From NCBI GenBank assembly GCA_031266915.1, contig JAISAB010000001.1, forward strand, positions 37,994 to 101,993: a stretch of DNA of 64,000 nt, in the 5' to 3' direction. Numbering within the stretch: position 1 is the first letter of the stretch; every line of letters begins with the position of its first letter. This DNA is from Rickettsiales bacterium (lineage in GTDB: Bacteria > Pseudomonadota > Alphaproteobacteria > Rs-D84). Below the pieces are notes generated by a model. It saw nothing but the letters and a program-made list of their open reading frames with translations. It had not been told where the DNA came from and made no database searches. A program made the position numbers and the translations under genes. Below, one piece after another: positions 1,064 to 53,845 of the stretch.

Positions 1064-1065
1064 TA

Positions 1066-1145
1066 GTCAATAGTCTTTAGTGATTAGTTTATAGTGCTAT
1101 GACTAGACAACTATTCACTAACGACTATAGACTAATGATTATTTG
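1066..1145. repeat. Dispersed TAGTC/ATAGT-unit palindromic repeat (family A) immediately 3' of mreB
   Basis: tagtcaatagtc...actatagactaatgat; same architecture at 14001,15888,16345,18650,24252,42903. Confidence 0.6.
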
Positions 1146-1798: not shown

Positions 1799-4588
1799 AT
1801 GAGCGACAATAAACTTTCCCCCGTCATGCAGCAGTATGTTGATATGAAAGCCGAAAATCCGGATGCTTTGTTATTGTTTCGCCTGGGCGATTTTTACGAG
1901 GTTTTTTTCGAAGACGCCAAAACCGTCAGCGCGGCCATCGGAATTGTCCTGACACACCGCGGCGTCGACGCGAACGGCGACGATATTCCCATGTGCGGAA
2001 TTCCCTGGCATGCGGCGGACAACTATTTCGGCCGGCTGGTTCGTGACGGGTACAAGGTCGCGCTGGTCGAACAGATGGAGACACCCGCCCAGGCCAAGGC
2101 CGCCGGACGAAAATTTGTCACCCGCCAGGTCGTGCGCGTCCTGACGCCGGGCACGCTGACGGACGAGAATCTGCTGACGCCGAAGAATTCGAATTTTCTG
2201 GTCGCGGTCGCTCCCAGGAACAAGGAACAGGAACAAGGAACAGGGGTATTGTCACCCGTTCCTTGTTCCTTTTCCTCGTTCCTGATAGCCGGTTGCGATA
2301 TTTCGACCGGCGAATTCTTTATCGGCGAATCGGCGGCCATACTGGATGATTTGGTCCGCGTCAATCCGGCCGAAATTATTTATCCTGAAACAGACGCGGA
2401 AAACCCAGAAATCATGCGTCTGCGCGACACATTCAAAACGACGCCCGTTTATGAAAAGCTGTACAATCGCGCTGACATCGATCAAATAGTATTTAAGATA
2501 TTCGGACAGAACTTCGCCTCTTCGCGGCAGGTGGAAGAGCGCAGAGTGCAGAGCGCAGTTGAAAAATCGCAGGGCGATTTTTCATCGAATCACGAATCAC
2601 GAGTTACGAGTCACGCCGCCGCCGGTTTGTGTGGCAGCGCGACCTGCAATGGGGCGGTGGCGCTGCTGGCCGGGTATCTGTTCAATACCCAGCGCGACGC
2701 CAATATCGCGTTCCGCGCGCCGTACGCTTTCAAGGCCGGAACGCAATTGCTGGTTGACAGCGCGACTTGGAAAAGCTTGGAAATCGACAGCCCAATCAAC
2801 GACGGCGGAACATGTCTGGTCGACATTCTAGACAAGACCAAAACCGCTGCCGGGGCGCGGCGCCTGCGTTCATATCTGCGCGCGCTGTCGGGCGACATCG
2901 GCGAAATCCGCCGACGCCAGGAACACATCGGCCATCTGATTCTGAACCGCGACGTCATGGGCGGGCTGGAACGGATTCTATCCCGCGTGCCCGACGTCGG
3001 CCGCAGTCTGGCGCGATTGCTGTCGGGACGCGGCGCGCCGCGTGACCTGCGCGTGGCGGCCGATTTTATGGTCATGCTTGGCGATGCAAAATCCATGGGC
3101 GCCCGCTTGGATTCAGATTTGGCGGCCAAGTTCGCAAACATCGACACGCATGACGCGCTGGCGGGTGAATTGAAATTTGCGCTGAACGACGAACTGCCGA
3201 CTTTTTTCCGCGACGGCGGAATCATCCGCGCCGGATTCGACCCGTCGCTGGACAATATGAAAGAACTGGCGAACGGCGCCAAGGAAACAATCGCCGGCCT
3301 GCAGGCTCAGTACGCTGCTGCGACCGGTGTGGGCGCGCTGCGGATAAAATACAACAACATACTCGGGTATTTTATCGAGGTCCCCAGCCCCCGCGCCGAC
3401 GCGCTGATGAATCCTGAAAACGGATTTATTCATCGCCAGACAATGGCCGGCAACATGCGCTTTACCACGCCGCGTTTAATCGATTTGGACAATGATGTCC
3501 GCAGCGCCGCCGAAAAAGCCGGGGCAATCGAATCTGAAATCATTGCGAATCTGATTGAAAAAATCCGGGCGGCGGCCGACGATTTGCTGAACACGGCGGA
3601 ATTAATCGCGGACGCAGACGTGTGGCGCGCGCTGGCCGATGTGGCCGACGAATATTCATGGGTGCGCCCCGCCGTGACCGAATCCCGAGCGTTCGACGTG
3701 CGCGGCGGCCGCCATCCGGTTATCGAGGCCGTTCTGCGTTCCCGCGGCGACGCGTTCGTTAAAAACGACTGCGTCCTGGACGGGCGGCAAATCGCGCTGT
3801 TGACCGGTCCGAACATGGCCGGAAAATCCACCTATCTGCGCCAGAACGCGCTGATTGTCGTGCTGGCGCATCTGGGCGCGTTCGTGCCGGCAGAACGCGC
3901 CACAATCGGCGTCTGCGATCAGCTGTTCAGCCGCGTCGGCGCCAGCGACAACCTGGCCGCGGGCCAGTCAACGTTTATGGTCGAGATGACGGAAACGGCG
4001 AATATTCTGAACCGCGCGACGCGCCAGTCCTTTATCATTTTCGATGAAATCGGCCGCGGAACCGCGACATACGACGGCATGGCGATTGCCCAGGCCGTAC
4101 TGGAATTTTTGGATGACGTCAAACCGCGCACCTTGTTCGCGACACATTATCATGAACTGACCGCGCTGGTACCATCGTCAGAGTTCAAAGTTCAAGGTTC
4201 AAAGTTCAAATATTCCGGTGATGAACCCGGGATCACGATTTCGCAAGACGGTTCGGCTTGCGCCCATCTGAACTCTGTTAACTGTCTGACCATAGAAATT
4301 CGCGAGCATAACGGCGAGATTGTCTTTATGCATAAAATAATTCCCGGCGTGGCCAGCCGCTCCTATGGAATACACGTTGCAAAAATGGCCGGCATACCAA
4401 TATCGGTGATAAATCGCGCCGAAGACGTCCTGAACGCGCTAGAAACCCGGACCGACGCGCCTGCGCGAAAAACGCCGCCTGCGGTCAAAAAGGTCGAAGA
4501 TGTCGACATGATTGTCGACGAGCCGGGCGTAAAACCGCAAAAAGTCGCGGCGCCTGCAAACAAAACACAGCTTTCCCTGTTTGGATAA
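1799..4588 (+). CDS. mutS: DNA mismatch repair protein MutS (carries three in-frame repeat insertions)
   Basis: 929 aa; MQQYxxxK...LFRLGDFYE N-terminus, Walker A GPNMAGKST, TFMVEMTETA; insertions at 2213-2283, 2521-2615, 4181-4210. Confidence 0.9.
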   Translation: MSDNKLSPVMQQYVDMKAENPDALLLFRLGDFYEVFFEDAKTVSAAIGIVLTHRGVDANGDDIPMCGIPWHAADNYFGRLVRDGYKVALVEQMETPAQAKAAGRKFVTRQVVRVLTPGTLTDENLLTPKNSNFLVAVAPRNKEQEQGTGVLSPVPCSFSSFLIAGCDISTGEFFIGESAAILDDLVRVNPAEIIYPETDAENPEIMRLRDTFKTTPVYEKLYNRADIDQIVFKIFGQNFASSRQVEERRVQSAVEKSQGDFSSNHESRVTSHAAAGLCGSATCNGAVALLAGYLFNTQRDANIAFRAPYAFKAGTQLLVDSATWKSLEIDSPINDGGTCLVDILDKTKTAAGARRLRSYLRALSGDIGEIRRRQEHIGHLILNRDVMGGLERILSRVPDVGRSLARLLSGRGAPRDLRVAADFMVMLGDAKSMGARLDSDLAAKFANIDTHDALAGELKFALNDELPTFFRDGGIIRAGFDPSLDNMKELANGAKETIAGLQAQYAAATGVGALRIKYNNILGYFIEVPSPRADALMNPENGFIHRQTMAGNMRFTTPRLIDLDNDVRSAAEKAGAIESEIIANLIEKIRAAADDLLNTAELIADADVWRALADVADEYSWVRPAVTESRAFDVRGGRHPVIEAVLRSRGDAFVKNDCVLDGRQIALLTGPNMAGKSTYLRQNALIVVLAHLGAFVPAERATIGVCDQLFSRVGASDNLAAGQSTFMVEMTETANILNRATRQSFIIFDEIGRGTATYDGMAIAQAVLEFLDDVKPRTLFATHYHELTALVPSSEFKVQGSKFKYSGDEPGITISQDGSACAHLNSVNCLTIEIREHNGEIVFMHKIIPGVASRSYGIHVAKMAGIPISVINRAEDVLNALETRTDAPARKTPPAVKKVEDVDMIVDEPGVKPQKVAAPANKTQLSLFG

Positions 4589-4610: not shown

Positions 4611-5600
4611 ATGAACGGATGGATAATCTTGGACAAGCCGTCAGGCATGACCAGCCGCGCCGCGGGCGGGCGCGTCATGCGTATGTTTGGCGCCGAAACG
4701 TTCGGCCATATCGGAACCTTGGACCCGATGGCGTCGGGATTGCTGCCGATTGCGCTGGGCAATGCCACCAAGATGATTCCTTTTTTCGAGAGCGAAGAGC
4801 GTAGAGCGCAGAGCGAAGGTTCCGCCGCTTCGCGGCAGAGCGCAGGTCGCAAGTCGCAGGTAGAAGATGTTGATAATAACGAACCATCTACGCTCTGCGC
4901 TCTTCGCTCTTCGACCTCTAAAGAATATCTATTCAGCGTTCAGTTCGGATTCGAAACTGATACGCTGGATATTACCGGAACGGTTGTCAAGGAAACCAAT
5001 GTTGTCCCATTGCCGGCTCAGGTTATGGCAGCGTGCGCCGCACTGACCGGAACGATTTATCAAACGCCGCCGGCCTATTCCGCGGTGCATGTCGGCGGGC
5101 GGCGCGGCTATGAACTGGCGCGCGCGGGCAAAGAATTCGAAATTCCGCCACGCCCGGTTACCATCGACGCGCTGGAATTGCTGGACGCGGGCAGAAAATC
5201 CTGGCAATTCCGCGTGGTGTGCGCGCCCGGAACATACGTTCGCGCCATTGCCCGCGACATCGCCGCGATGTGCGATACGGTCGCAACCGTGGACATGATA
5301 CGGCGCCTGCGTACCAGCGGCCTGGATATAAAAGATGCGGTCGGGCTTGATTTTTTAGAAAATCTGTTTCATAATGGCGGGAACTTCGAAGATTATTTGA
5401 AGCCTGTGGATTTCGGACTGGGGGACATTCCGGTTCTGAATCTGAACGACGCGGACGCCGGTTTATATAAACAGGGCGGCTTTGTCGAAATTGCGGCGGC
5501 GGGCGAACCGGGATTGGTTCGGGTCTTTTCAAACGGGCGGTTCATCGGAATCGGAACGTTTGACGGCAACCTGTTGAAGCCGAAACGAACACTTAACTAA
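4611..5600 (+). CDS. truB: tRNA pseudouridine(55) synthase TruB with an in-frame 127-bp palindromic insertion
   Basis: [13 protein letters not shown] and [18 protein letters not shown] motifs; start moved to Met11 (4611) to avoid overlap with mutS. Confidence 0.85.
4789..4915. repeat. Family D palindromic element (gagcgaagagcgtagagcgcagagcg ... cgctctgcgctcttcgctcttcgac) inside truB
   Basis: Arms are reverse complements; copies at 27350-27485 (in queH) and 30911-30995 (fabG-mnmG spacer); fragments at 2521-2560 and 35581-35618. Confidence 0.75.
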
Positions 5601-5614
5601 ACAAAGGAAACACA

Positions 5615-5887
5615 ATGTCCATTGCAAAAGCAAAAAAGACTGAACTGATTAACGAATTCAAGACGACCGACGCCGACAACGGCGGCAGCGCGGCGTCCCA
5701 AGTCGCAGTATTGACCGAGCGCATTCGTAATTTGACCGAGCATATGAAGGCAAATCACAAGGACAACCATTCCAAGCGCGGCCTGCTGCTGATGGTCAAC
5801 CGCCGCAAGAAATTATTGGCCTATATCAAAAAGCGCAACGTGGCTGAATACGAAGACTTGATTAAGAAATTGGGTCTGAGAAAATAA
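5615..5887 (+). CDS. rpsO: 30S ribosomal protein S15
   Basis: 90 aa; [34 protein letters not shown] typical S15. Confidence 0.9.
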
Positions 5888-5913
5888 AAAACCGTCCAAT
5901 GGGCGGTTTTTTA
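5888..5913 (+). terminator. Rho-independent terminator after rpsO
   Basis: accgtccaatgggcggt hairpin followed by tttttt. Confidence 0.6.
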
Positions 5914-6275: not shown

Positions 6276-6304
6276 TAAAAAAACCGCCAGATGGCGGTTT
6301 TTTC
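6276..6304. terminator. Bidirectional hairpin terminator (A-run, accgccagatggcggt, T-run)
   Basis: Symmetric A/T runs flank a GC hairpin. Confidence 0.4.
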
Positions 6305-6317
6305 ATGAATCATAATA

Positions 6318-6408: not shown

Positions 6409-6427
6409 AAACACTAACGACTGCTGA

Positions 6428-11037: not shown

Positions 11038-11610
11038 ATGAAAAACATAAAATCGCTGATATACGAAATCCGCGGCGCTCAGGTCATGCTTGACGGCGAC
11101 TTGGCCCAATTGTACGGAATGGAAGCAAAACGACTAAATGAATCAGTCAAACGCAACATCGGTAAATTCCCACCGGAATTTATGTTTCAAATTACATTGG
11201 GAGAATGGGATGACTTGAAGTCGCAAATTGCGACCTCAAGTTTGAATAACATTTCAATCTTGAAGTCACAAATTGTGACTTCAAGATGGGGAGGCCGTAG
11301 AAAGCCGCCTTTCGTCTTTACCGAACACGGTGTCGTCATGCTGGCGTCCGTTCTGAACAGTCCGGCCGCCATCCAGATGAATATAGCAATAGTCAAATCC
11401 TTTATAAGCATGCGCGACTACGTTTCCCAGCCGATTCACAAAAAATTGGAAGACTTGGAAAAAATTCTTATGCTGCATATCGACGACACAAGTTTGAATT
11501 TTGCCGGCCATTCCGATGCAATCAATGAGATTATTGACAAATTGAACAACATGATGGAACATCCGCGCCCAAAACGGCAAATAGGATTTAAACTGGAAAA
11601 TTCGAAATGA
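11038..11610 (+). CDS. ORF6N-domain protein (phage/plasmid-type DNA-binding domain) inserted in the efflux operon
   Basis: IRGAQVMLDGDLAQLYGMEAKRLNESVKRNIGKFPPEFMFQ...LKSQIVTSRWGGRRKPPFVFTEHGVVMLASVL matches the ORF6N consensus; AT-rich; stop and start overlap the neighbours. Confidence 0.6.
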   Translation: MKNIKSLIYEIRGAQVMLDGDLAQLYGMEAKRLNESVKRNIGKFPPEFMFQITLGEWDDLKSQIATSSLNNISILKSQIVTSRWGGRRKPPFVFTEHGVVMLASVLNSPAAIQMNIAIVKSFISMRDYVSQPIHKKLEDLEKILMLHIDDTSLNFAGHSDAINEIIDKLNNMMEHPRPKRQIGFKLENSK

Positions 11611-12326
11611 AAGAGCCGAAAAATATTATCTCAATGGATAAAATCTGCAAAAGCTTTCCCATCGAAATGGGCGGCCAGCAGCAGGTCTTGTTCGACATAA
11701 CCTTCGATGTCCAGGCCGGCGAGTTCGTCGCCATCATGGGCCCGTCGGGCAGCGGAAAATCCACCTGTATGAATATCATCGGGGCGCTGGACACGCCGAC
11801 TTCCGGCGTATACAGGCTGTACGGCGACGACGTCACCCACATGTCGTCCGACGGGCTGGCGTTGATGCGAAACGAGCATATCGGGTTCGTCTTTCAGAAT
11901 TTCAACCTGCTGTCGAAACGCAACGTGCTGGACAACGTCATGCTGCCGCTGATGTATCGCGGCCTGTCGACGGACGAGCGCGTCGAACGCGCGCGCGCCA
12001 TGCTGCGGCGCGTGGGCTTGGAAAACTTCGAGACCTATCTGCCGCCGCAGCTGTCGGGCGGCATGCGCCAGCGCGTGGCCATCGCGCGCGCCTTGGCCGG
12101 CGACCCAAAGCTGATTTTGGCGGACGAGCCGACCGGCGCCCTGGACAGCAAGATGGGCAACGAAATCCTGCAATTCTTCAAGAAATTGAATAAAGAGATG
12201 GGCATTACCATCGTCATGATTACCCATGAATTCGACATCGCGAAATACGCCGGGCGCCTGATTCACATCCGCGACGGCCGCATAAACTATGACGGCGCCA
12301 TACCAAAGGACGATAGGAACCTGTAG
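11607..12326 (+). CDS. MacB/LolD-type ABC transporter ATP-binding protein
   Basis: Walker A GPSGSGKST, signature LSGGMRQRVAIARAL, Walker B LILADEPTGALD. Confidence 0.85.
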   Translation: MKEPKNIISMDKICKSFPIEMGGQQQVLFDITFDVQAGEFVAIMGPSGSGKSTCMNIIGALDTPTSGVYRLYGDDVTHMSSDGLALMRNEHIGFVFQNFNLLSKRNVLDNVMLPLMYRGLSTDERVERARAMLRRVGLENFETYLPPQLSGGMRQRVAIARALAGDPKLILADEPTGALDSKMGNEILQFFKKLNKEMGITIVMITHEFDIAKYAGRLIHIRDGRINYDGAIPKDDRNL

Positions 12327-12758
12327 GAGATAGTAGATACTAGATACGAGATAGGAGATATGCAACAATGTCCAAAGACAGCATTGCGCTTGAAAAAAGC
12401 AAAAAGTTTTCAGTCCGGATAATAAGATTCAGCAAATATTTGGGCGACAAACGGCGTGAATATGTTATGTCTAAACAGATATTGAGGTCCGGCACAGGAA
12501 TAAGCGCAAATCTATCTGAAGCAATTTATGCCGTTAGCAGAAGCGATTTTTTATCTAAACTGTATATCGCGCTAAAGGAATGTTCGGAAACGTTGCATTG
12601 GTTGGAATTGCTAAACGAATCAGGATACATAACCGATTTGCAATATACGAGTATGCATTCTGATTGTGAAGAAATACGCAAAATGTTGTCATCCGCAACA
12701 AAAACCGTACGGGAAGTGTGATTGGTATCTTGTATCTCCTATCTACTATCTCGTATCT
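12325..12758 (+). mobile_element. Candidate miniature insertion: four-helix-bundle gene flanked by imperfect inverted repeats (ggagatagtagatactagatacgagataggagata / tatcttgtatctcctatctactatctcgtatct)
   Basis: Inverted gagata/gtagata-unit repeats at 12325-12360 and 12725-12758 bracket an AT-rich gene that splits the ABC ATPase from its permease. Confidence 0.35.
12368..12721 (+). CDS. Four-helix-bundle protein (23S rRNA intervening-sequence protein family)
   Basis: KQILRSGTGISANLSEAIYAVSRSDFLSKLYIALKECSETLHWLELL matches the family core (RSGTSIGANI.EA..A.S..DFI.K..IALKEA.ET.YWL). Confidence 0.65.
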   Translation: MSKDSIALEKSKKFSVRIIRFSKYLGDKRREYVMSKQILRSGTGISANLSEAIYAVSRSDFLSKLYIALKECSETLHWLELLNESGYITDLQYTSMHSDCEEIRKMLSSATKTVREV

Positions 12759-12775
12759 AAAAAACGGAGTTTTTT

Positions 12776-13993: not shown

Positions 13994-14000
13994 AACACTA

Positions 14001-14102
14001 GCGGATAGTCAATAGTCATTGGTCTATAGTCAATAGTTAATAAAGCCGTCGGCTTCGCCGACACATTCACTACCAACTAACGACTATAGACTACTGACTA
14101 TG
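14001..14102. repeat. Family A element with central terminator-like hairpin (gccgtcggcttcgccgac)
   Basis: atagtcaatagtcattggtctatagtcaatagtt ... aactaacgactatagactactgactat. Confidence 0.6.
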
Positions 14103-15473: not shown

Positions 15474-15857
15474 ATGTCTAGATTTGTCTCTGTTTTTTCC
15501 GGGCTGTCGTTGCTGTCTGGGGCGGCGGCCAGCGCGCCGCCGCCGACTTCGCTTGGCGACGAATGCGACACGAAATCATATACCTGCGCGAACGGATATT
15601 ACGGCACGCCGACCGATAGTTCTACCGGATGTACGCTATGCCCCGAGCACGCTACATGCGCCGGCACGGGCAACACAACATTCATATGTATTTCAGGATA
15701 TTATAAAATTGGCGCCACGTGTGCGCCCTGCCCCGATGGCGGCACATCAATTGCGGGCGCGCGGGCGATAACCGATTGTTATCTGCCCACTGGAACATCA
15801 TTTGAAGATGCGTACGGAACTTTTGAATTGACCGACAAGTGTTATTATAGCAATTAA
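15474..15857 (+). CDS. Cysteine-rich secreted protein (eukaryote-like CxxCP / GYY repeats)
   Basis: Signal peptide; CTLCPEHATCAGTGNTTFICISGYYKIGATCAPCPDGG; followed by a terminator. Confidence 0.5.
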   Translation: MSRFVSVFSGLSLLSGAAASAPPPTSLGDECDTKSYTCANGYYGTPTDSSTGCTLCPEHATCAGTGNTTFICISGYYKIGATCAPCPDGGTSIAGARAITDCYLPTGTSFEDAYGTFELTDKCYYSN

Positions 15858-15884
15858 AAAACCGGCAAAAAAGCCGGTTTTTTA
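15858..15884 (+). terminator. Rho-independent terminator
   Basis: accggcaaaaaagccggt hairpin followed by tttttt. Confidence 0.6.
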
Positions 15885-15887
15885 ATA

Positions 15888-15982
15888 AATAGTCGTTAGT
15901 CTATAGTCATTAGTGAATAGTGCTTAGTTTATAGTGCATAGTTAATAGTTCACTAATCACTATGCACTATTCACTAGTGATT
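15888..15982. repeat. Family A element
   Basis: atagtcgttagtctatagtcattagtgaatagtgcttagtttatagtgcatag...cactattcactagtgat. Confidence 0.55.
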
Positions 15983-16029
15983 AAAAAAACCATCATCCCC
16001 CAAGTTTTTGTAACGCTGACGCTAACAAA

Positions 16030-16330
16030 AACTTTCCCCCTTTATCAAGGGGGACAAGTGCTAAACCAAGGGGTAAAAGAGCTGAGCCAAATGGGATAAG
16101 TGCCAAACCGAGGGGGGAAAAGAGCTGAACAAATTGGATAAGAGCCGAATCAAGGAAGACAAGTGCCAAGTTTTGTGCCAGTGCGCTGTTCTGGGCTGTT
16201 GCCCCTTTCATTTCACGCTTGTTCCCAGCAACCTGGCGCCAGCCACTCTTGTTTCATACTTGTTCCTAGAACTTGGCGCTGGCCCCTCTTGTTAAAGAGG
16301 GGTGAAAATCTTGGCAACTTGTTGCCATAG
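16030..16330. repeat. Degenerate ~38-nt tandem units (acaagtgctaaaccaagggg...) followed by an inverted counterpart
   Basis: Three tandem units around 16045-16170, then cttgttcc...cttggcgctggcccctcttgtt on the other arm; non-coding. Confidence 0.4.
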
Positions 16331-16344
16331 ATTTTCGGGGAGAT

Positions 16345-16470
16345 TAATAGTTAGTCAACAGTCATTGGTCTATAGTCAGTAGTGTATAGCAAATAGCACA
16401 TACAATTAGGTGGTTATTTCAGATTTATGATTTAAGATATAAGATTTAGGCGACATTAAATCTTAAATTT
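16345..16470. repeat. Family A unit followed by family I gatttatgatttaagat repeats
   Basis: tagtcaacagtcattggtctatagtcagtagtg; agatttatgatttaagatataagatttag...taaatcttaaattt. Confidence 0.5.
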
Positions 16471-17413: not shown

Positions 17414-17456
17414 TGTCGCTCCTTTTTTTTTCGTGACACGCGATACGTAATACGAA

Positions 17457-17828
17457 CTATTTTGTTATACTTTTCAATAATCCCGTCAGCATTTGATTTA
17501 TTCTTTCTATATCGCTTGTCAGTGTTTCAAACATGTTTTTATTTATAAAATTCAAATCCGACGCCAGCATAATCTGGCATTTTAATTCTGCGGCTGAACC
17601 TCTTGCAATACCAATAAACTGCTTTAACTCTCCGGTTGTAATCCTCGCGCCGCCCTCTGATAAATTAGAACAAACTGAAACCGCCGCACGGCGCATCTGA
17701 CTTGTTAATCCGAATTTTTCATCCTGCGGGAATTCTTTTGTAATTTCATAAATAACCTTTACAAAATTCCTAGATATTTTAAACACATCAAGTTCTTCTA
17801 TCGATTTCATTTTAGCCCCACGTATCAC
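17457..17828 (-). CDS. Four-helix-bundle protein (23S rRNA IVS protein family), second copy, between parA and parB
   Basis: LDVFKISRNFVKVIYEITKEFPQDEKFGLTSQMRRAAVSVCSNLSEGGAR...FIGIARGSAAELKCQIMLA closely matches the family consensus; AT-rich; start may be Met 17810. Confidence 0.65.
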   Translation of the reverse strand: MIRGAKMKSIEELDVFKISRNFVKVIYEITKEFPQDEKFGLTSQMRRAAVSVCSNLSEGGARITTGELKQFIGIARGSAAELKCQIMLASDLNFINKNMFETLTSDIERINQMLTGLLKSITK

Positions 17829-18586
17829 GCTTTCTCAACTATCTCCGTCGCGACGCGCAGGTACGCCTGGGCGCCGGCGGAGCCGAAATCATAGAATAAC
17901 GCCGGCTTGCCGTGGCTGGGGGCCTCGGAAACGCGGACGTTGCGCGGCACGACCGTTTTAAAGACCTTGTCGCCAAAGGTGTTGCGAACGTCTTCCTCGA
18001 CCGCCTTGGTCAATCCATAGCGTCGATCATACATCGTCAGCAAAACGCCCAGGATTTCCAAATTCGGATTCCAATTTTTGCGGATTTCCGAAATCGTATT
18101 GACCAGATGCTGGACGCCTTCCAGCGCAAAGAACTCGCATTGCAGCGGCACGACAATCGAATCGGCCGTCGTCAGCGCGTTCAGCGTCAGATAGCCCAGC
18201 GCCGGCGGACAGTCCAACAATATGTAATCGTAATGGCCGCGCACCGGTTCCAACGCGTCGCGTAGACGGTATTCGCGGTTGTCCATATCCAGCAGCTCGG
18301 CCTCGGCACCCGACAAGGCCGGACTGGCCGGCAGGATGTGCATGCCCGGAACGGCGGTGGACAGAATATTGTCGGCCGCGCTGGCGGTTCCCATGATAAC
18401 GCCGTACACGCTTTGACGATGGGCGGCGCGGACAAACCCCAGACCTGTTCCGGCGTTGCCCTGCGGGTCCAGGTCTATCAGCAGGACGCGCTTTTTGATG
18501 GCGGCCAGGGACGCCCCGATATTGATGGCCGTCGTAGTCTTGCCGACGCCGCCCTTTTGGTTGGCAAACGCGATAATCTTTGTCAT
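17825..18586 (-). CDS. parA: Chromosome partitioning ATPase ParA
   Basis: KIIAFANQKGGVGKTTTAINIGASLA deviant Walker A; 253 aa. Confidence 0.9.
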   Translation of the reverse strand: MTKIIAFANQKGGVGKTTTAINIGASLAAIKKRVLLIDLDPQGNAGTGLGFVRAAHRQSVYGVIMGTASAADNILSTAVPGMHILPASPALSGAEAELLDMDNREYRLRDALEPVRGHYDYILLDCPPALGYLTLNALTTADSIVVPLQCEFFALEGVQHLVNTISEIRKNWNPNLEILGVLLTMYDRRYGLTKAVEEDVRNTFGDKVFKTVVPRNVRVSEAPSHGKPALFYDFGSAGAQAYLRVATEIVEKA

Positions 18587-18649: not shown

Positions 18650-18750
18650 TAGTCAATAGTGGATAGCAAATAGCATATAGAAAATAACAAAATTCTAAAC
18701 AAAATACTACCGACTATAGACTACTGACTAATGACTAATGACTAATACTA
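18650..18750. repeat. Family A element
   Basis: tagtcaatagtggatagcaaatagcatatag...ctaccgactatagactactgactaatgactaatgactaat. Confidence 0.55.
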
Positions 18751-18857
18751 CCGTTTCCGGCTCACAAAAAACAAACATTTATTAATAAACTCTTAGCTAT
18801 TTCATACGAAATTATATTTAGACTTGACAAAAACACCATTCGTAGTACTTTGACCGC

Positions 18858-19784
18858 ATGACTTTTCGCAAATTATATTCTTTGGGAATTAAAATCGCTT
18901 TGGGGACGGGGCTTGTCCTGATTCCAGCATGGTTTGTGCGACCTTTGGACACACCGACAGTTTCGACCAACCATGTATTCAAGCCGGCCTATGACGATAT
19001 TGTGTTCAAAACTGATACAAATTACATCACAGATGAAATTTATAACGATTTGGCTGGCAAAATCCGAAATTATGTTGAAAAACCACGAACAAAACGAACA
19101 TTAGCTTGGGGCATTTCATATCCGTACGCGAACAAGATTGTCATCTATTACAATATAACTAACAGCAAATCCCCAGCGGTCCAGCGCTATGTCGACTATT
19201 CGAACAGCCAAATTCGCCTGACAAAACGCCACGAGTTGGAACACGCCAGAAAATCGGCCTTTGTTCACGGCGTAGAGAACAATTTGCCATTCATACGCGG
19301 AAAAATCGCCATGATGAACGAGGTGATGGCGCCTGCCGGCGAGATAATCGAAGCCTTGGATCATCACGCCGAAACAGGCGAAGTTTATCCGAACGCACCG
19401 AACCAGATAAAATCCGCAGACGCCGCAATCATGCGCATTCTGGGACAAGACAAATTAACTGGTCCCGTTGATTTCAACAACCAACAGATTGCGGACATCG
19501 TCATGGAACACGCGCTGGCGAAATTCTTATTCCATTACAACCACGGCATATACCACTGGACAATCAGCAACGCTAAAAAAACCTTTAAATTCAAAAGCCC
19601 GCCAAAAAATTCCGAATATATGAAATACAGCGGCTATTCCTTTTTTCCGTTATTTAACGACTGGCAGGCACTGTGGGTCTTCGAAACCAAACGCGGAATG
19701 GCCGATTTGTGGAAAAATGCGTCAGACGAACAGAAAAAACGTCTTATCGCCACCACAGATTCCATTGTTAAACTAACACGATAA
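18858..19784 (+). CDS. AT-rich hypothetical membrane-anchored protein with HExxH motif (putative Zn metallopeptidase/effector)
   Basis: 308 aa; N-terminal TM LGIKIALGTGLVLIPAWFV; TKRHELEHARK; ~40% GC versus ~60% in flanking genes. Confidence 0.5.
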   Translation: MTFRKLYSLGIKIALGTGLVLIPAWFVRPLDTPTVSTNHVFKPAYDDIVFKTDTNYITDEIYNDLAGKIRNYVEKPRTKRTLAWGISYPYANKIVIYYNITNSKSPAVQRYVDYSNSQIRLTKRHELEHARKSAFVHGVENNLPFIRGKIAMMNEVMAPAGEIIEALDHHAETGEVYPNAPNQIKSADAAIMRILGQDKLTGPVDFNNQQIADIVMEHALAKFLFHYNHGIYHWTISNAKKTFKFKSPPKNSEYMKYSGYSFFPLFNDWQALWVFETKRGMADLWKNASDEQKKRLIATTDSIVKLTR

Positions 19785-24251: not shown

Positions 24252-24370
24252 TATAGTCTATAGTCAGTAGTCATTAGTGAATGTGTCGCGCAACCTGTCC
24301 ACCGAAGCCTTGGCGAAGGTGGAAGCGCGACGACTTTATTGACTATTGACTATATGATTATTGACTTTTC
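24252..24370. repeat. Family A element with central GC hairpin (gtgtcgcgcaacc...ccaccgaagccttggcgaaggtgg...gcgcgac)
   Basis: atagtctatagtcagtagtcattagtgaat ... attgactattgactatatgat. Confidence 0.6.
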
Positions 24371-24410
24371 ATTTGCAATTAAAATTCGGTTTGTTATAAT
24401 CCGCCGGTCC

Positions 24411-27291: not shown

Positions 27292-28000
27292 AAAAATCCG
27301 CCTTGTTTTGTTGTCGTGCTGCGCGCCGTGTTCCTGCGGCGCTATAAAAGAGTTAGTAGAGTGTAGAGCGCAGAGCGAAGGTTTCGCCGCTTCGCGGCAG
27401 AGTGAATGTCGCAGGTCGCAGGTAGAAGGTGTTGATAATGACGAACCACCTACGCTCTGCGACCTGCGATCTACGCTCTTCGACTTTATCGTCTTGTTCT
27501 ATAACCCTAATATTTATCCCGATACCGAATACCAGAAACGGTTGGCGGAACAAATCAGATACTGCGAATCATTGGATGTGAAATATGCCGTCGGCGATTA
27601 TGACCACGCCGCGTGGCTGAATTCCGTGCGCGGCCTAGAATCAGAGCCTGAGCGTGGCAAGCGCTGCACGCAGTGTTTCCGCCACAGATTTCGTTTCGCA
27701 AAACAGTGGGCGATGGAAAACGGATACAACGCTATCGCGTCCGTTCTGGGCGTGTCACGTCACAAAGACCAGGCACAGGTCGACAGCGCGGCGCGGGAAG
27801 AAATAGGGAACGGGGAACCCGCCTTCGCCATCCACCTTCGCCGAGGCTACGGGGGACAAGAGGCTACGGCGGGCAGGCAGGAACAAGGAATAATTTATCT
27901 GCCTATCAAATTGGATGAAAGTCTGCGCCAGGAAATTAGCAAAAAGGCCGGCTTTTACCGCCAGAATTACTGCGGCTGCGAGTTTTCAATGCGAAAATAA
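27275..28000 (+). CDS. queH: Epoxyqueuosine reductase QueH (DUF208) with two in-frame repeat insertions
   Basis: LLSCCAPCS, LFYNPNIYPDTEY, RCTQCFRHRF, YRQNYCGCEFS hallmarks of QueH; insertions at 27350-27485 (family D) and 27805-27895 (family E). Confidence 0.7.
   Translation: MDAMHEKIRLVLLSCCAPCSCGAIKELVECRAQSEGFAASRQSECRRSQVEGVDNDEPPTLCDLRSTLFDFIVLFYNPNIYPDTEYQKRLAEQIRYCESLDVKYAVGDYDHAAWLNSVRGLESEPERGKRCTQCFRHRFRFAKQWAMENGYNAIASVLGVSRHKDQAQVDSAAREEIGNGEPAFAIHLRRGYGGQEATAGRQEQGIIYLPIKLDESLRQEISKKAGFYRQNYCGCEFSMRK
27350..27485. repeat. Family D palindromic element inside queH
   Basis: agagcgcagagcgaaggtttcgccgcttcgcggcagag...ggtagaaggtgttgataatgacgaaccacctacgctctgcg; co-linear with the truB copy. 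Confidence 0.75.
27805..27895. repeat. Family E element (ccttcgccgaggctacggcgggcaggcaggaacaaggaa) inside queH
   Basis: Reverse complement of 40094-40186; shares the ggaacaaggaacagg core with mutS 2213-2283. Confidence 0.65.
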
Positions 28001-36935: not shown

Positions 36936-36941
36936 TTCAAT

Positions 36942-36974
36942 ATCGAATTACGAGTCACGAATTACGAATCTCGA
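36942..36974. repeat. Family C cgaattacgagtcacgaattacgaatc repeat
   Basis: Copies at 2586, 37604, 41862, 45208, 50491, 52951; usually next to terminator hairpins. Confidence 0.55.
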
Positions 36975-36975
36975 A

Positions 36976-37003
36976 AAAACCGGCCGCGGCCGGTTTTTTT
37001 TAC
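36976..37003. terminator. Bidirectional terminator (aaccggccgcggccggtt with flanking A/T runs)
   Basis: Serves nth on + and the small genes on -. Confidence 0.55.
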
Positions 37004-37071
37004 CCGACCATATATCCGCATATAAATATCGCAACCGCGGCGATAGCGAATACAAACATTTTTGCTTTCAT
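37000..37071 (-). CDS. 23-aa hydrophobic micropeptide MKAKMFVFAIAAVAIFICGYMVG
   Basis: Perfect SD TAAGGAGG 9 nt upstream of the ATG, overlapping the stop of the upstream gene; followed by a terminator. Confidence 0.4.
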   Translation of the reverse strand: MKAKMFVFAIAAVAIFICGYMVG

Positions 37072-37089
37072 GATTTTTTTTCCTCCTTA

Positions 37090-37368
37090 TTACCAGCCGC
37101 CTTTTAGCTTTTCGGCGCACCCAACCGATTCGCTGCCCATCAAGAAACTGATGCCGATACCGATTGCAAACAGCAGCGCGAATCCGACCAGCATTGGGAT
37201 GCCTTTGGATTTCAGGGTTTCCATAACGGTCGTTTTCCCGTCCGTCGTAATCAGCCCCCACGCCATGTTGGCCAGGACGAATCCCGCGCCGACAAACGCC
37301 AGAACGCGCAGCGTCTGGAATACACCCTGCATCGAGTCTATAAGATTGCATAATCCTGATTCGTTCAT
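37090..37368 (-). CDS. Two-TM small membrane protein, possibly VirB2/TrbC-like pilin
   Basis: 92 aa from Met 37368 (GGAGG SD); LIDSMQGVFQTLRVLAFVGAGFVLANMAWG resembles the VirB2 core (NNICTFILGPFGQSLAVLGIVAIGISWMFG); a second hydrophobic helix follows. Confidence 0.4.
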   Translation of the reverse strand: MNESGLCNLIDSMQGVFQTLRVLAFVGAGFVLANMAWGLITTDGKTTVMETLKSKGIPMLVGFALLFAIGIGISFLMGSESVGCAEKLKGGW

Positions 37369-37560: not shown

Positions 37561-37633
37561 ACAAACTGATTATATCAGAATATAAGACAATTACAAATAA
37601 AATATCGAATCACGAGTCACGAATTACGAATCA

Positions 37634-37662
37634 CGAAAAAAACCGCCGAACGGCGGTTTTTT
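37634..37662. terminator. Bidirectional terminator downstream of pheT
   Basis: aaaaaaaccgccgaacggcggttttttt. Confidence 0.6.
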
Positions 37663-37666
37663 TATT

Positions 37667-42077: not shown

Positions 42078-42905
42078 TTGGCGATGAACCAGAAAAAAAT
42101 ATCTTCCAAAGTGCTGTCTTATGCGAAATCGGCGCTGGCCGCGGCTGTTTTGCCGGTCTTTTTGATATATGTCATGATTGACAAGCCCGATTACAAGATT
42201 ATCGGCGCCATGTCGCACATTGTCCTGCCGGCGGCGAACTGGGTCGGCGATGTCGTGTCGTGGCCGATACGGGCCGTGGCCAGCGGCGTGGCGGGAATAC
42301 GCGAGCTGTCCAATCTGCGCGGCGAGAACGAAGAACTGCGCGCCAAATTGGACCAGGCCCTGCGCATGCGCAACGAATGCGGCGTGGCAATTTCGGAAAA
42401 CCAAAGGCTGGCCCGAGAGCTGGACATGGTCCGCGCGTCGCCGCAAAAGGCGGTCGCTGCGCTGGTTTCCTATAACAACGACGCGTTTCACCACAGCACG
42501 TTTTTCATAGACAAGGGCGCGCGCGCCGGCATCGAGCCCGGCATGGCCGTCGTTTCGTTTGACGGGCGGCTGGCGGGCATCGTCATCGACGCGGGGCCGA
42601 CCTTTGCCAAGGTCCGCAGCCTGACGGATTCGAAATCGAACATACCCGTCCGCGTCGCCGGGTCCGAGGTCTACGGTTTTCTGCAGGGCAGCGGTTCCGG
42701 CGACCCGACGATGGGATTTTTCAGCGACCCTGAATTCCAGCCAACCCGGGGCTTGAAACTGGTCACCAGCAACATCCGCGGCGTGCTGCCCGACGGAATA
42801 ATCGTGGGCGAGATGTCCAATTCGACGGACGCGTCCGTTCTGCGCCCGACGCGCATGTCCAGCGTTATGGTTCTGCAGTTCGACGGCAAGGACAAATACA
42901 AATAG
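42078..42905 (+). CDS. mreC: Rod shape-determining protein MreC
   Basis: N-terminal TM, coiled coil LRGENEELRAKLDQAL, beta-rich C-terminal domain; followed by mreD-mrdA-rodA. Confidence 0.8.
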   Translation: MAMNQKKISSKVLSYAKSALAAAVLPVFLIYVMIDKPDYKIIGAMSHIVLPAANWVGDVVSWPIRAVASGVAGIRELSNLRGENEELRAKLDQALRMRNECGVAISENQRLARELDMVRASPQKAVAALVSYNNDAFHHSTFFIDKGARAGIEPGMAVVSFDGRLAGIVIDAGPTFAKVRSLTDSKSNIPVRVAGSEVYGFLQGSGSGDPTMGFFSDPEFQPTRGLKLVTSNIRGVLPDGIIVGEMSNSTDASVLRPTRMSSVMVLQFDGKDKYK

Positions 42906-43005
42906 TGAATAGTGATTAGTGCATAGTTTATAGTGACTAGCGGGCTAGCTACAACACTGCAAACTAAACACTAAGCACTATAAACTAAACACTATAAACT
43001 AATGG
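42903..43005. repeat. Family A element
   Basis: atagtgaatagtgattagtgcatagtttatagtgactag...cactataaactaaacactataaactaatgg. Confidence 0.55.
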
Positions 43006-43442: not shown

Positions 43443-45210
43443 CACCGAAGTCGCGCGCCTTTTCGACAGACGCTCGGCCCTGTTTCTGACAACGGGCGCG
43501 GTTCTGACGTCCGCGTTGGTGCTGCGCATGCTGCAGATGCAGTTCTTCGGCTATAACGAGTACAAGCGCAAATCCGAAAACAATTCCTTTCGCATTCAAA
43601 TCAACATGCCCGAGCGCGGAAAAATACTCAGCGCGTCCGGCGCGCCCATTTCGCGCGACACGCCCATTTATCGGATTTATATTATTCCCGAAGAGGCCGA
43701 AGACCTGGACGCGCTGATTGGCCTGGTCGCGCGCGAGTTGAAACTGAATAAAAAGAAATCGGACAGAATCCACGCCAGGATTCGCCGCCAGGCCCGGTTC
43801 CAGCCTGTCTTGGTCAGCGAGAATTCCGACTGGAACAAACTGGCCGAACTGCAGGCGCAGAATCTTCCCGGCCTGCATATCCGCAGCGGATTCGCGCGCG
43901 TCTACGAATTGGGGCCGGCCGGCGCTCAGGTCTTCGGCTATGTCGGCATGCCGGACAAGCCCGTGGCCAACGCGCCGTTCTATACCGCCGGCATAACTGG
44001 GCTGGAAAAAACGTTCAACACAGAATTGCTGGGCGCGCCCGGCCAGACCGTCATGATTGCCAACGCCGTCGGGCGCATCACCGGCGAGGACAAGTCCCAA
44101 TTCATCGAGGCCCAAAGCGGCGAAAGCATTAAAACGACGATTGTCGACGGCGTTCAAAAGAAACTGTACGACGCGCTGTCGATGCAGCGCTCTGGGTGCG
44201 GCGCGGCGATTGAAATCGCGACGGGCAATGTTGTCGCGATGGTGTCGACCCCCAGCTTCGACCCGAACAATTTCCGCAACGACGACGGCGAGGAATACAT
44301 CGCCGAACTGCGTAAGGACGCCGCCAAGCCATTTATGAACAAGGCGCTGGAGGGATTGTATCCGCCGGGCTCGACATTTAAAATCGTCGTGGCGCTGGCG
44401 GCGCTGGAATCGGGCGCCGTGACGCCGGGCGAAAAAATCTTCTGCCCGGGCCACTGGGATTACGGCGACCGGCGGTACCACTGCTGGGAATCGAAAGGTC
44501 ATGGGCACGTCGACCTGGTTGGCGCGCTGAAGCATTCGTGCGACACGTACTTTTACCAAATCGCGCTGCGCATCGGAATCGACGCAATAAAATCCATGGC
44601 GCTGCGGCTGGGGCTGGCGGAAACGTTCATGCACGACATATTGCCGCGGGAAATGGCCGGCGTCGTTCCGGACAGATTGTGGAAAGAAAAACACGTCGGC
44701 GCACGCTGGGTGCACGGCGATACCATTATTTCGGGAATCGGCCAGGGATTCATCCTGTCCAATTGCCTGCAGCTGGCGGTCATGATGGCGCGCGCGGCCA
44801 GCAACAGCGCCATAGTGCCGCGCCTGGTGGCCGGCGGCGACGGGCGGGCCGCGGGATTCGGCCCCTTGGGGCTGCAGAAGAAAAACATCGACATCGTGCT
44901 GAAAGGCCTGGAACAGGTCACGCAGCCTGGCGGCACCGCCGCGGGCGGCGCCATCAATGTCGGCGGAAAAAAGATGGGTGGCAAGACCGGCACGTCCCAG
45001 GTGCGCAGCATTTCGCGCAGCGAACGCGACAGCGGCGTTTTGTCCAACGAGCAGTTGAAATGGAACCTGCGGAATCACGGACTGTTCGTCGGATACGCGC
45101 CGACCGTCAATCCCAGGTACGCCGTCTGCGCGATTACGGAACACTCGGGCGGCTCGGGTCCGGCGGCGCGCGCCGCGGCGGCCGCAATGAGGGAACTATT
45201 AAAGTCGTGA
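43435..45210 (+). CDS. mrdA: Penicillin-binding protein 2 (peptidoglycan D,D-transpeptidase MrdA)
   Basis: STFK active-site serine motif (YPPGSTFKIVVALAALE), SCD, KTG; 591 aa. Confidence 0.9.
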   Translation: MIDTEVARLFDRRSALFLTTGAVLTSALVLRMLQMQFFGYNEYKRKSENNSFRIQINMPERGKILSASGAPISRDTPIYRIYIIPEEAEDLDALIGLVARELKLNKKKSDRIHARIRRQARFQPVLVSENSDWNKLAELQAQNLPGLHIRSGFARVYELGPAGAQVFGYVGMPDKPVANAPFYTAGITGLEKTFNTELLGAPGQTVMIANAVGRITGEDKSQFIEAQSGESIKTTIVDGVQKKLYDALSMQRSGCGAAIEIATGNVVAMVSTPSFDPNNFRNDDGEEYIAELRKDAAKPFMNKALEGLYPPGSTFKIVVALAALESGAVTPGEKIFCPGHWDYGDRRYHCWESKGHGHVDLVGALKHSCDTYFYQIALRIGIDAIKSMALRLGLAETFMHDILPREMAGVVPDRLWKEKHVGARWVHGDTIISGIGQGFILSNCLQLAVMMARAASNSAIVPRLVAGGDGRAAGFGPLGLQKKNIDIVLKGLEQVTQPGGTAAGGAINVGGKKMGGKTGTSQVRSISRSERDSGVLSNEQLKWNLRNHGLFVGYAPTVNPRYAVCAITEHSGGSGPAARAAAAAMRELLKS

Positions 45211-45285
45211 TTGGTAATTGGTAATCCGTAATCGGTAATTCGAACATTGCGGTCGGATTACCGATTACGAATCACGAGTCACGGC
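45208..45285. repeat. Family C long palindromic form
   Basis: gtgattggtaattggtaatccgtaatcggtaattcgaacattgcggtcggattaccgattacgaatcacgagtcacg. Confidence 0.55.
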
Positions 45286-46467: not shown

Positions 46468-46542
46468 CAATTAAGAATTAATAATTAAGAATTACATTTG
46501 CAAATTTAATTATTAATTCTTAACTCTTAATTCTTAATTAAA
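46468..46542. repeat. Family B aattaagaattaa palindromic element
   Basis: aattaagaattaataattaagaattacatttgcaaatttaattattaattcttaactcttaattcttaatt. Confidence 0.6.
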
Positions 46543-46556
46543 TAAACGAGTTTGAA

Positions 46557-50449: not shown

Positions 50450-50490
50450 CACGGCCCGCGCGTACGACCTTGAATTGATGTTTTGTCATC

Positions 50491-50549
50491 TTACGAGTCA
50501 CGAGTTACGAATCACGAAAAAAACCGGTCTTTTTGCCGGCTTTTTAATT
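50491..50549. repeat. Family C repeat plus weak hairpin/T-run
   Basis: cttacgagtcacgagttacgaatcacgaaaaaaaccggtctttttgccggcttttt. Confidence 0.4.
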
Positions 50550-51623
50550 ATTGAACAAGAAATGACAAATGTCGCCGTCGTTCATGATGTAATCGCGACC
50601 GACCAGTTTCATTTTGCCGGCCTCTTTGACGGCCGTTTCGCTGCCGAGCGCGATATAGTCCGCCGGCGTTATAACCTCGGCCCGGATAAAGCCCTTTTCG
50701 AAATCAGTATGGATTTTTCCGGCCGCCTGGGGCGCGGTCATGCCGCGGCTGATTGTCCAGGCATGCGCCTCTTTCGGGCCGATTGTATAAAACGTCTGCA
50801 ACCCCAAAGTCTCGTATCCGGTGCGAATCACCTTGTCCAGTCCAGATTCGGACAATCCCAATTCGTCCAGGAACATCCGGCGTTCGGCCACGTCAACAAT
50901 CTGGGAAATTTCCATTTCGATTTTGCCCGATATTACCAGCACCGGCGCGGCGCCGGCGAATTTGTCCGCGACCTGTTTCGAATAGCTGTTGCCGGCCGCA
51001 GCCGCGCTTTCTTCAACGTTGCAGACGTAAATCACCGGCTTTTTTGTTAATAAATTAAAAGGCGTCGCATCGACGGATTGCGCGCGTGCCGGAATTCCGG
51101 CATCCAGGCCCTTTTTCAATTCATTTGCATCGGCCAGCAGTTTCGCGGCATCTTTATCCAAACCGCGGGCCTTTTTTTCCAAGTTCTTAATCTGTTTGTC
51201 CAGGGATTCCAAATCGGCCAGCATCAGTTCGGTTTCGATTGTCTCGATATCCGACAGCGGGTCGATTTTTCCATCCACATGAACGATGTCGTCGTTCTGA
51301 AAACACCGGACTACATGAATTATCGCGTCCGTCGCCAGAATGTTGCCCAAGAATTTGTTGCCTAATCCCTCGCCGGCCGAGGCGCCCCGCACCAAGCCGG
51401 CGATGTCCACGATTTCCAATTGCGTCGGCAGAATTTTGGCCGAGCCCGCGACCCGCGCCAAATCATGTAGCGTCGCATCCGGCACGACGACGCGGCCGGT
51501 GTTCGGCTCGATAGTGCAGAATGGATAATTCTGCGCATCGGCCGCCGCGCTGGCCGTCAGCGCATTAAACAAAGTCGATTTCCCGACATTCGGCAATCCG
51601 ACAATTCCGCAGTTGAATCCCAT
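50544..51623 (-). CDS. ychF: Ribosome-binding ATPase YchF
   Basis: CGIVGLPNVGKSTLFNALT G1 motif; 359 aa; TGS-like C-terminus. Confidence 0.9.
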   Translation of the reverse strand: MGFNCGIVGLPNVGKSTLFNALTASAAADAQNYPFCTIEPNTGRVVVPDATLHDLARVAGSAKILPTQLEIVDIAGLVRGASAGEGLGNKFLGNILATDAIIHVVRCFQNDDIVHVDGKIDPLSDIETIETELMLADLESLDKQIKNLEKKARGLDKDAAKLLADANELKKGLDAGIPARAQSVDATPFNLLTKKPVIYVCNVEESAAAAGNSYSKQVADKFAGAAPVLVISGKIEMEISQIVDVAERRMFLDELGLSESGLDKVIRTGYETLGLQTFYTIGPKEAHAWTISRGMTAPQAAGKIHTDFEKGFIRAEVITPADYIALGSETAVKEAGKMKLVGRDYIMNDGDICHFLFNN

Positions 51624-53844: not shown

Positions 53845-53845
53845 T

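Follow-up and report, generated by a model that had tools for sequence, protein, structure and literature searches.

What are the inverted-repeat elements with TAGT-containing units that recur in the genome of a Rickettsiales bacterium? We address this question in a stretch of 64,000 nucleotides (positions 37,994 to 101,993 of contig JAISAB010000001.1, assembly GCA_031266915.1), which is referred to as the window. A sequence-only reading had placed such elements, named Family A, at 1066, 14001, 15888, 16345, 18650, 24252 and 42903, and these positions serve here as names of the copies (boundaries are given in the table). All seven loci are real; the elements are approximately 100 bases long, and all but the 16345 copy form hairpins. 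We propose, with a probability of roughly 70%, that Family A is one family in a genome-wide population of heptamer-array palindromes of the short tandemly repeated repetitive (STRR) type, which entered gene junctions by insertion and multiplied by copying.

Family A is defined by its repeat unit. The pattern TAGTN3TAGTN3TAGT (TAGTNNNTAGTNNNTAGT), searched on both strands with at most one mismatch, yields 44 matches compared with 0.02 expected, and none of 100 shuffles reaches this number. The matches fall in all seven loci, at 1064-1141, 13999-14100, 15883-15983, 16366-16390, 18650-18744, 24254-24278 and 42903-43001, and one further, weak match is found at 6413. The units had been described as degenerate atagtc/tagtga/attagt sequences. 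They are indeed centred on TAGT, but the unit is a strict heptamer: 7 is the sole period with a signal among lags 3-12 in a lag self-match scan, and Tandem Repeats Finder (TRF) assigns period 7 to every Family A arm. A copy generally consists of 4-9 tandem TAGTnnn heptamers, a variable loop of 5-60 nt that lacks an open reading frame (ORF), and an inverted nnnACTA array. In the 14001 copy, the left arm reads GATAGTC, AATAGTC, ATTGGTC, TATAGTC and AATAGTT and is followed by a short G+C-rich hairpin, gccgtcggcttcgccgac, and the right arm is made of the inverted units ACTACCA, ACTAACG, ACTATAG, ACTACTG and ACTAT. In the 24252 copy, the right arm (TTGACTA units, 24332-24368) stays under the pattern threshold, yet it pairs with the left arm in the predicted fold. 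Long imperfect hairpins are predicted for six of the seven copies (-19 to -52 kcal/mol; z = -3.4 to -7.8 relative to dinucleotide shuffles) with A+T-rich, interrupted stems of 25-35 bp that carry no T tail. The 16345 copy, with its left arm alone, shows no significant fold. Thus, inverted arms are a property of six copies and not of the seventh, and the G+C-rich hairpin said to occupy many centres is not general: it is found in the 14001 and 24252 copies, and the 42903 copy has a small one. An Rfam scan of the whole window returned only four tRNAs at the gathering threshold and no match to Family A.

Family A is a subset of a larger heptamer population. A lag-7 scan of the window detects 47 period-7 arrays from at least eight unit families (TAGTnnn, AGAGCGn, CGAATCA/CGTGATT, AATTAAG, GATTTAA, GGTACnn, TTCAAAG and TAGGAGA). 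For most of these arrays, an inverted partner lies at a distance of 0-75 nt, and the arms comprise 3-5.5 units with a median of 4.3. An idea that each arm provides five units for a pentameric binding partner was set aside, given that the lower bound of the unit number is the detection threshold and the median is uninformative in this respect. The non-coding part of the window, 14.6% of its length, harbors 30 of the 47 arrays, and the heptamer families located inside ORFs keep the frame open. The element of sister family B in truB is 135 nt long and coincides exactly with an insertion of approximately 40 residues in an alignment with E. coli TruB. Its second copy, in queH, is read in the same frame and is approximately 85% identical over 135 nt, as estimated by eye, so that family B adds approximately 45 residues to each of two housekeeping proteins. 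Arrays or hairpins are also observed in the mutS frame (1799-4588) at 2210-2289, 2526-2619 and 4174-4215, with the units AGGAACA/GTTCCTT, AGAGCGC plus CGAATCA, and TTCAAAG, and the Pfam match to MutS domain II is only partial. At the position that family B occupies in the queH gene of the window, queH of assembly GCA_031555055.1 (L083:290-440) carries a palindrome that is not built from heptamers, AAACTCCCCCCTTG...CAAGGGGGGAGTTT. The presence of differing palindromes at one queH site suggests an insertion hot spot or a replacement.

Where do Family A elements reside? An eighth copy was found on a contig of sample SRR14710922 that extends 538 nt to the left of the window, and five of the eight known copies lie within approximately 30 nt downstream of a stop codon. 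The view of Family A as a dispersed family of inverted-repeat elements, mostly just past stop codons, is thus borne out. A gene 3' end is the site of the 1066, 14001, 15888 and 42903 copies and, loosely, of the 16345 copy, but not of the 18650 copy, which lies between divergent genes, or of the 24252 copy, which lies upstream of tRNA-Val. This placement can be explained by the unit itself. Every copy contains stop codons in all six frames because TAG, and TGA or TAA on the other strand, cycle through three frames every three units, and no copy is located inside an ORF. Family A therefore survives only outside ORFs, which accounts for its intergenic location at gene 3' ends. Moreover, an element can supply the stop codon of the abutting gene, as the TAG at 42903 does for mreC; likewise, a family H unit provides the TAG at 12324 for an ABC ATPase, and a family C unit provides the TGA at 45208 for PBP2. 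Such elements matter for annotation, given that they lengthen operon junctions and supply stop codons and that sister families enlarge conserved enzymes.

Does Family A terminate transcription, as had been suggested? Terminator scans around all copies reveal no Family A stem that combines a G+C-rich stem with a T-run on the sense strand, and the one Family A sequence that they list is the inner GC core of the 14001 copy, on the minus strand. Promoter scans around all copies show no enrichment of promoter-like matches in the Family A arms. The 42903 copy sits inside the mreC-mreD-pbp2-rodA cluster, and canonical terminators adjoin the 15888 and 16345 copies, which indicates that the arrays accompany terminators and do not replace them. 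A role of Family A as intrinsic terminators is not supported. Single-arm family C arrays (CGAATCA/CGAGTCA, 4-5 units) likewise adjoin ordinary terminator hairpins: they are located at convergent gene ends at 36939-36999, 37595-37665 and 50489-50550, and each of the three is directly followed by an A-run, a GC hairpin and a T-run. This recurrent composite resembles a bidirectional terminator.

The mreC-mreD-pbp2-rodA cluster allows filled and empty sites to be compared. Relatives were collected from PBP2 neighbourhoods and comprise metagenome-assembled genomes (MAGs) of uncultured gut Rickettsiales/Alphaproteobacteria and Candidatus Enterousia, with PBP2 identities of 66-82%. In the window, the junctions from mreC to mreD, from pbp2 to rodA and from rodA to the next gene measure 96, 97 and 103 nt, respectively, and each is filled almost exactly by one hairpin, of Family A, C and D, respectively. 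In L003, L006 and most other relatives, the same junctions measure 0-14 nt or the genes overlap, with approximately 11 nt at the orthologous mreC|mreD junction in relatives such as L003 and L006. This comparison shows that the hairpin elements were inserted at gene junctions that had been compact before. In the relative L005 (GCA_031555055.1), all three junctions are also occupied by hairpins, which are made of other hepta- or hexamer units. The window contains 0.73 arrays per kb, compared with 0.44 in L005 and 0.030 in 988 kb of sequence from 76 further relatives. Close relatives devoid of the elements thus offer a clean comparison of filled and empty sites. Look-ups of exact proteins (macB, mreB and mreD) for strain variation retrieved only contigs of the same sample, SRR14710922, that are identical to the window. 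Another close relative without heptamer hairpins, L002 (Cc175_bin55), contains related inserts of approximately 270-300 nt at pbp2|rodA and rodA|next (2350-2650 and 3800-4060), both of which carry AATTTGACGGCGCCC...GGCTTTCTGCTTG.ATGTAT and look like a different junction-colonising repeat.

How did the copies arise? The order of unit variants is common to Family A copies: CGACTATAGACTAnTGA recurs at 1119, 14083 and 18713, and AGTCATTGGTCTATAGTCA recurs at 14014 and 16360, in the 14001 and 16345 copies. The copy to the left of the window and the 14001 copy (L172:9-104 and 14006-14101) are 88.5% identical over 96 nt; the core is identical over 29 nt, the G+C core and the adjoining loop do not differ, and the differences are confined to the arms. 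In a second genome, a Family A-like hairpin is found between macA and the ABC ATPase gene (L083:14345-14417). A common unit order together with a common loop core argues that whole elements were copied and that the arms then changed faster, as is expected of slippage-prone arrays. Judged from these alignments, Family A spread by the copying of whole elements, with arms that drift by unit gain, loss and mutation.

Heptanucleotide arrays, including STRRs, have been known in cyanobacteria since 1990 and were later described in Beggiatoaceae, and to our knowledge they have no accepted origin or function. The STRR units of Mazel et al. (1990) are reportedly of the nnnnRGT type, such as CCCCAGT, TTGGTCA and CAACAGT. 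Two sequences that we take to be STRR units, TTGGTCA and CAACAGT, are present in window arrays at 14016-14022 and 16357-16363, and the unit type is the same in that Family A is nnnTAGT and has CATTGGT and CAACAGT units at 14016 and 16357. BLAST of a Family A copy against plasmids retrieved TTAGTCA/TTAGTTA arrays at same-strand gene junctions of Nostoc NIES-3756 and Gloeothece PCC 7822. Cyanobacterial STRRs are 7-bp tandem repeats; in several genera, those located between hupS and hupL form hairpins. No function has been established for STRRs, with transcript stability and translational coupling as suggested roles (PMC2670836). Family A resembles them in its tandem, exact 7-nt units, dispersed and mostly intergenic location, frequent occurrence at same-strand gene junctions and capacity to form hairpins. 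Furthermore, the in-gene insertions of the window find a parallel in an STRR inside the RNase P RNA gene, to go by the title of Vioque 1997 cited in PMC7593598. However, the host here is a gut alphaproteobacterium and not a filamentous or heterocystous cyanobacterium, and no cyanobacterial genes were found among the profile- or Pfam-assigned ORFs of the window. Family A nearly always has two inverted arms around a loop, whereas the retrieved cyanobacterial matches are single direct arrays, and the multiplicity of unit families that coexist in 64 kb is a further difference. Family A is thus an STRR in structure, but not in host. The presence of TAGT-type units as palindromes in an unrelated gut alphaproteobacterium means that the heptamer-repeat phenomenon is not cyanobacterial. 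The BLAST against plasmids also retrieved a perfect AATAGTT array of 13 units upstream of plasmid partition genes on lp38 of Borreliella burgdorferi B31 (L167:1500-1585); it recurs on lp38 of many strains and places the TAGT unit type in a spirochaete.

In marine Beggiatoaceae, some Cyanobacteria and Bacteroidetes, TAACTGA heptamers form direct repeats of 2-6 copies (PMC4679880), and heptamer repeats have also been described near Nostoc start codons (bioRxiv 10.1101/2022.06.06.494920). The Beggiatoaceae repeats are likewise abundant intergenic heptamer arrays that are scattered across phyla with no evident transfer vehicle; they differ in that a single unit is repeated directly, apart from one inverted case, and that they are concentrated immediately ahead of start codons (PMC4679880). 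The window elements, in contrast, have inverted arms and many units and abut stop codons.

Family A also shares part of its architecture with known palindromic repeats. Inverted arms are a feature of miniature inverted-repeat transposable elements (MITEs); no autonomous partner is seen in the window, and no duplication is visible at filled versus empty junctions. Rickettsia palindromic elements (RPEs), described by Ogata et al. (2000), are said to be palindromic repeats of approximately 100-150 nt. Family A matches them in size, palindromic form and alphaproteobacterial host, and sister family B lies in frame in truB and queH; RPEs, however, are not built from heptamers, and Family A, with stops in all frames, cannot sit in ORFs. 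Repetitive extragenic palindromes (REPs) measure just 20-40 nt, carry a conserved GTAG head and are tied to REP-associated tyrosine transposases (RAYTs). Like REPs, bacterial interspersed mosaic elements (BIMEs) and REP doublet hairpins (REPINs), Family A forms intergenic hairpins just past stop codons within operons in many dispersed copies. In contrast to REPs and REPINs, the arms in the window are 7-nt periodic and belong to many sequence families, and no RAYT is encoded by the scanned window ORFs.

Is there a protein partner for such arrays? The window contains two low-G+C genes of PF05635/TIGR02436, which encode Avd-like, four-helix-bundle 23S rRNA intervening sequence (IVS) proteins (IVPs), are wedged into operons and have heptamer arrays at their flanks. 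The first gene, together with its two arrays, forms a cassette between the macB ATPase and permease genes, and the orthologous L083 operon has no cassette. The second gene is preceded on its upstream side by a short complementary segment (~17821-17829), and the orthologous parA-IVP-parB arrangement of L083 has full inverted heptamer arrays. Heptamer arrays flank IVP genes in every further context that was fetched (L082, L083, L085, L169 and L171), which include a type II secretion operon that houses two IVP genes on a Thermodesulfobacteriota contig (L085), lepB-IVP-rnc (L169) and mraY-IVP-ftsW (L171). In a metagenome scan of 73 IVP genes with usable flanks, with arrays counted within 130 nt, a period-7 array is present upstream in 40/73, downstream in 37/73 and on both sides in 29/73 cases, of which 23 are inverted and 6 are direct. 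A period-7 array is found on either side of 48/73 genes (66%), compared with 41/1877 (2.2%) control windows at the same loci; period-8 arrays flank 16/73 genes, and periods 5, 6, 9 and 10 give 0-1/73. The unit sequence varies by locus, and the period is conserved. Even away from the IVP gene, IVP-bearing contigs have 0.235 arrays per kb compared with 0.030 in the loci of the relatives (approximately 8-fold). Furthermore, family C units (CGTGATT/CGTAATC) resemble the arms of parA-parB type IVP cassettes, and in L148 and L111, IVP genes are bordered by arms of the TAGT type. In the literature searched on PF05635, TIGR02436 and S23p, no description of a general association with heptamer arrays was found, and the sole related statement concerns the Coxiella IVS (see below). 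The association identifies a concrete candidate partner for heptamer repeats.

The 23S rRNA IVSs of Coxiella and Leptospira are related in layout, with a long stem and a cargo in the loop, as in the IVP cassettes of the window. The Coxiella IVS has 3-4 tandem heptamers just upstream of the S23p ORF, in the 5' stem, which bears an RNase III cut site (PMC4990558). Family A differs in that it lies outside rRNA, carries no ORF and has no PF05635 gene between its inverted arms, although the architecture is common to the window IVP cassettes; a line of descent between Family A and 23S rRNA IVSs is something that we can only infer.

On the preferred reading of Family A as inserted, copied heptamer palindromes, the elements would mainly be selfish or neutral passengers with incidental effects on operon transcripts. 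Their transcription inside operons would create long double-stranded stems that may act as RNase III targets or as barriers to 3' exonucleases, as has been proposed for STRRs and REPs. Less certainly, Family A may be the cargo-less form of a cassette that is able to carry a four-helix-bundle (23S rRNA IVS/Avd-like) gene in its loop, and the propagation machinery or a binding protein may recognize the 7-nt periodicity and not a particular sequence. In its most extended form, which we put forward tentatively as possible though doubtful, heptamer hairpins would be the cis part of one widespread and hitherto undescribed cassette system with optional PF05635 cargo. STRRs, 23S IVSs and Family A would be forms of this system, the protein would read the periodicity of arms of approximately 4-5 units and aid the spread or persistence of hairpins, and ORF-less copies would be non-autonomous derivatives. 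If true, such a cassette would explain what a very large protein family of unknown role does and where STRRs come from.

Several observations weigh against these proposals. The data on the host genome itself cover the 64-kb window and short extensions. No target-site duplication is seen at the three filled versus empty junctions, where a TA duplication would be indistinguishable from the TAGT...ACTA element ends, and no transposase, RAYT, IS200-like domain or reverse transcriptase is encoded among the scanned ORFs of the window. Arm complementarity in the best register (0.68-0.78) is close to that in registers shifted by 7 or 14 nt (0.57-0.76), which indicates that pairing comes mostly from the common unit and not from arm-specific covariation; unit insertions and deletions between the arms destroy their register. 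Folding is no stronger on the transcribed strand (sense versus antisense, 7 versus 8 elements, p = 0.43), and this lack of asymmetry gives no support for selection at the RNA level. With respect to the cassette, the IVP-array link, statistically strong as it appears in the sequences, amounts to no more than an association; within the window and its extensions, the host genome shows no IVP gene that is flanked by TAGT arms, and we know of no enzymatic activity of the IVP protein.

Could Family A instead represent non-autonomous transposable elements of the MITE, REPIN or RPE type, mobilized by a transposase or RAYT that is encoded elsewhere and is unrelated to IVP? A size of approximately 100 nt, palindromic form, dispersed related copies, insertion at junctions and the in-frame location of sister family B, as in RPEs, would all suit such elements. 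However, neither a suitable enzyme in the window nor a target duplication was seen, and many unrelated units that share the same 7-nt architecture are unexpected for a transposase that recognizes terminal sequences. We consider this explanation unlikely. Alternatively, Family A may consist of selected RNA elements whose intercistronic stems direct RNase III cleavage or protect upstream mRNA. Stems of more than 20 bp at cistron boundaries within operons are consistent with this idea, as are the 5' RNase III processing site at the start of the first heptamer repeat in the Coxiella 23S IVS (PMC4990558) and the roles in translational coupling or transcript stability that have been suggested for hairpins of STRRs (PMC2670836). 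The absence of a sense-strand folding advantage and of an Rfam match argues against it, and some copies lie in divergent regions or in regions that do not appear to be transcribed. Moreover, the same junctions exist in close relatives without elements, which shows that the elements are not needed there, and selection for an RNA function is an improbable account of the family.

The arrays might also be generated in place by replication slippage, independently at each locus and without inter-locus copying. According to the treatment of Mrazek et al. 2007 in PMC4679880, the long simple repeats of many bacterial genomes are most often heptanucleotide repeats, which are ascribed to polymerase slippage; unit number and variants vary among the Family A copies, and the orthologous junctions of L005 bear arrays of different sequence. 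Nevertheless, the specific order of variants is common to copies, one pair shares its identical, non-repetitive 29-nt core, and the truB and queH copies of family B are approximately 85% identical over 135 nt. In addition, slippage alone yields no inverted second arm, and an origin in place is very unlikely. The least probable explanation is that Family A hairpins are intrinsic terminators or insulators that stop or separate transcription at gene 3' ends, given that the proximity of five of eight copies to a stop codon is accounted for by stop-codon content alone and that the stable folding of all full copies occurs without a terminator-type stem, in part within an operon (42903) or in a divergent promoter region (18650), and beside separate canonical terminators (15888 and 16345).

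Table. Coordinates of Family A copies, sister-family elements and IVP genes (window positions unless a contig is named)
Feature	Position	Strand	Structure	Context
Family A copy	1064..1141	.	5 TAGTnnn units, short loop, 5 inverted units; -30.1 kcal/mol, z = -6.0	directly after mreB stop codon (TGA 1061-1063); mreB by Pfam
Family A copy	13999..14101	.	left arm 14004-14043, GC core hairpin 14047-14065, right arm 14069-14101; -37.9 kcal/mol, z = -6.6	6-11 nt past macB-type permease stop
Family A copy	15883..15985	.	longest left arm (9 units); 19-bp uninterrupted stem, -38.6 kcal/mol, z = -6.8	directly after canonical terminator hairpin 15860-15886, behind ORF 15474-15857
Family A half-element	16345..16390	+	left arm only, no inverted partner; z = -0.5	just past terminator-like hairpin 16312-16327; ~150 nt beyond parB 3' end
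Family A copy	18650..18752	.	degenerate left arm (TAGC/TAGA units); z = -3.4	between divergent parA (minus) and ORF 18858-19784 (plus)
Family A copy	24254..24368	.	nested GC-rich hairpin core ~24283-24331; -51.5 kcal/mol, z = -7.8	~40 nt upstream of tRNA-Val (24411); promoter-like site 24372-24400 after copy
Family A copy	42903..43001	.	z = -6.1	fills mreC|mreD junction; first TAG = mreC stop codon; mreD ATG at 43002
Eighth Family A copy	L172:1-112			just left of window, at rnpA 3' end
Sister family B	4785..4921	+	AGAGCGn outer arms (nested), GCAGGTC inner units, GC apex	in frame in truB
Sister family B, second copy	27350..27484	+		in frame in queH, same reading frame as truB copy
Sister family C hairpin	45205..45285	.	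CGTGATT/GGTAATC units	fills pbp2|rodA junction; pbp2 TGA in first unit
Sister family D hairpin	46469..46545	.	AATTAAG units	fills rodA|next-gene junction
IVP cassette	12320..12762	+	TAGGAGA-type array 12320-12367, IVP gene 12368-12721, TCTCCTA-type array 12721-12762	between macB ATPase and permease genes
Second IVP gene	17432..17829	-	IVP gene 17457-17828; heptamer array 17432-17459 downstream	between parA and parB

Other features of the window were observed alongside these elements. Two longer tandem repeats separate a pair of Family A copies; one has a 21/42-nt unit (CAAGGGGGAAAAGTGCTAAAC-like, approximately 2.5-4 copies) at 16046-16155, and the other has a 40-nt unit in 2 copies at 16211-16293. 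Both are located in a low-G+C stretch (14.0-16.5 kb) that the syntenic L083 region lacks. An ORF6N-domain gene (11038-11610, weakly Rha-like) that holds a 33-nt inverted repeat (11214-11285) is situated between macA and the ABC ATPase gene and is absent in the orthologous L083 operon. A probable defence island of low G+C content (34-43% G+C) is located at 56-64 kb. Its genes, at 57062-60061, 62145-62803 and 63011-63967, code for a restriction-modification enzyme of Type ISP, a phage-type integrase that is divided between two ORFs, and a SIR2-like protein. VirB3 and a probable VirB4 are encoded just upstream of it (53479-56254; only VirB3 was scanned). The minus-strand ORF at 36962-37351 has no Pfam match and, by eye, encodes a small hydrophobic, possibly pilin-like protein. 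Finally, two near-identical terminator-like hairpins, AAAAAACCG.C.A.TGG.CGGTTTTTT, at 5884-5912 and 6276-6306 are inverted relative to each other and bracket approximately 365 nt between rpsO and sspB.

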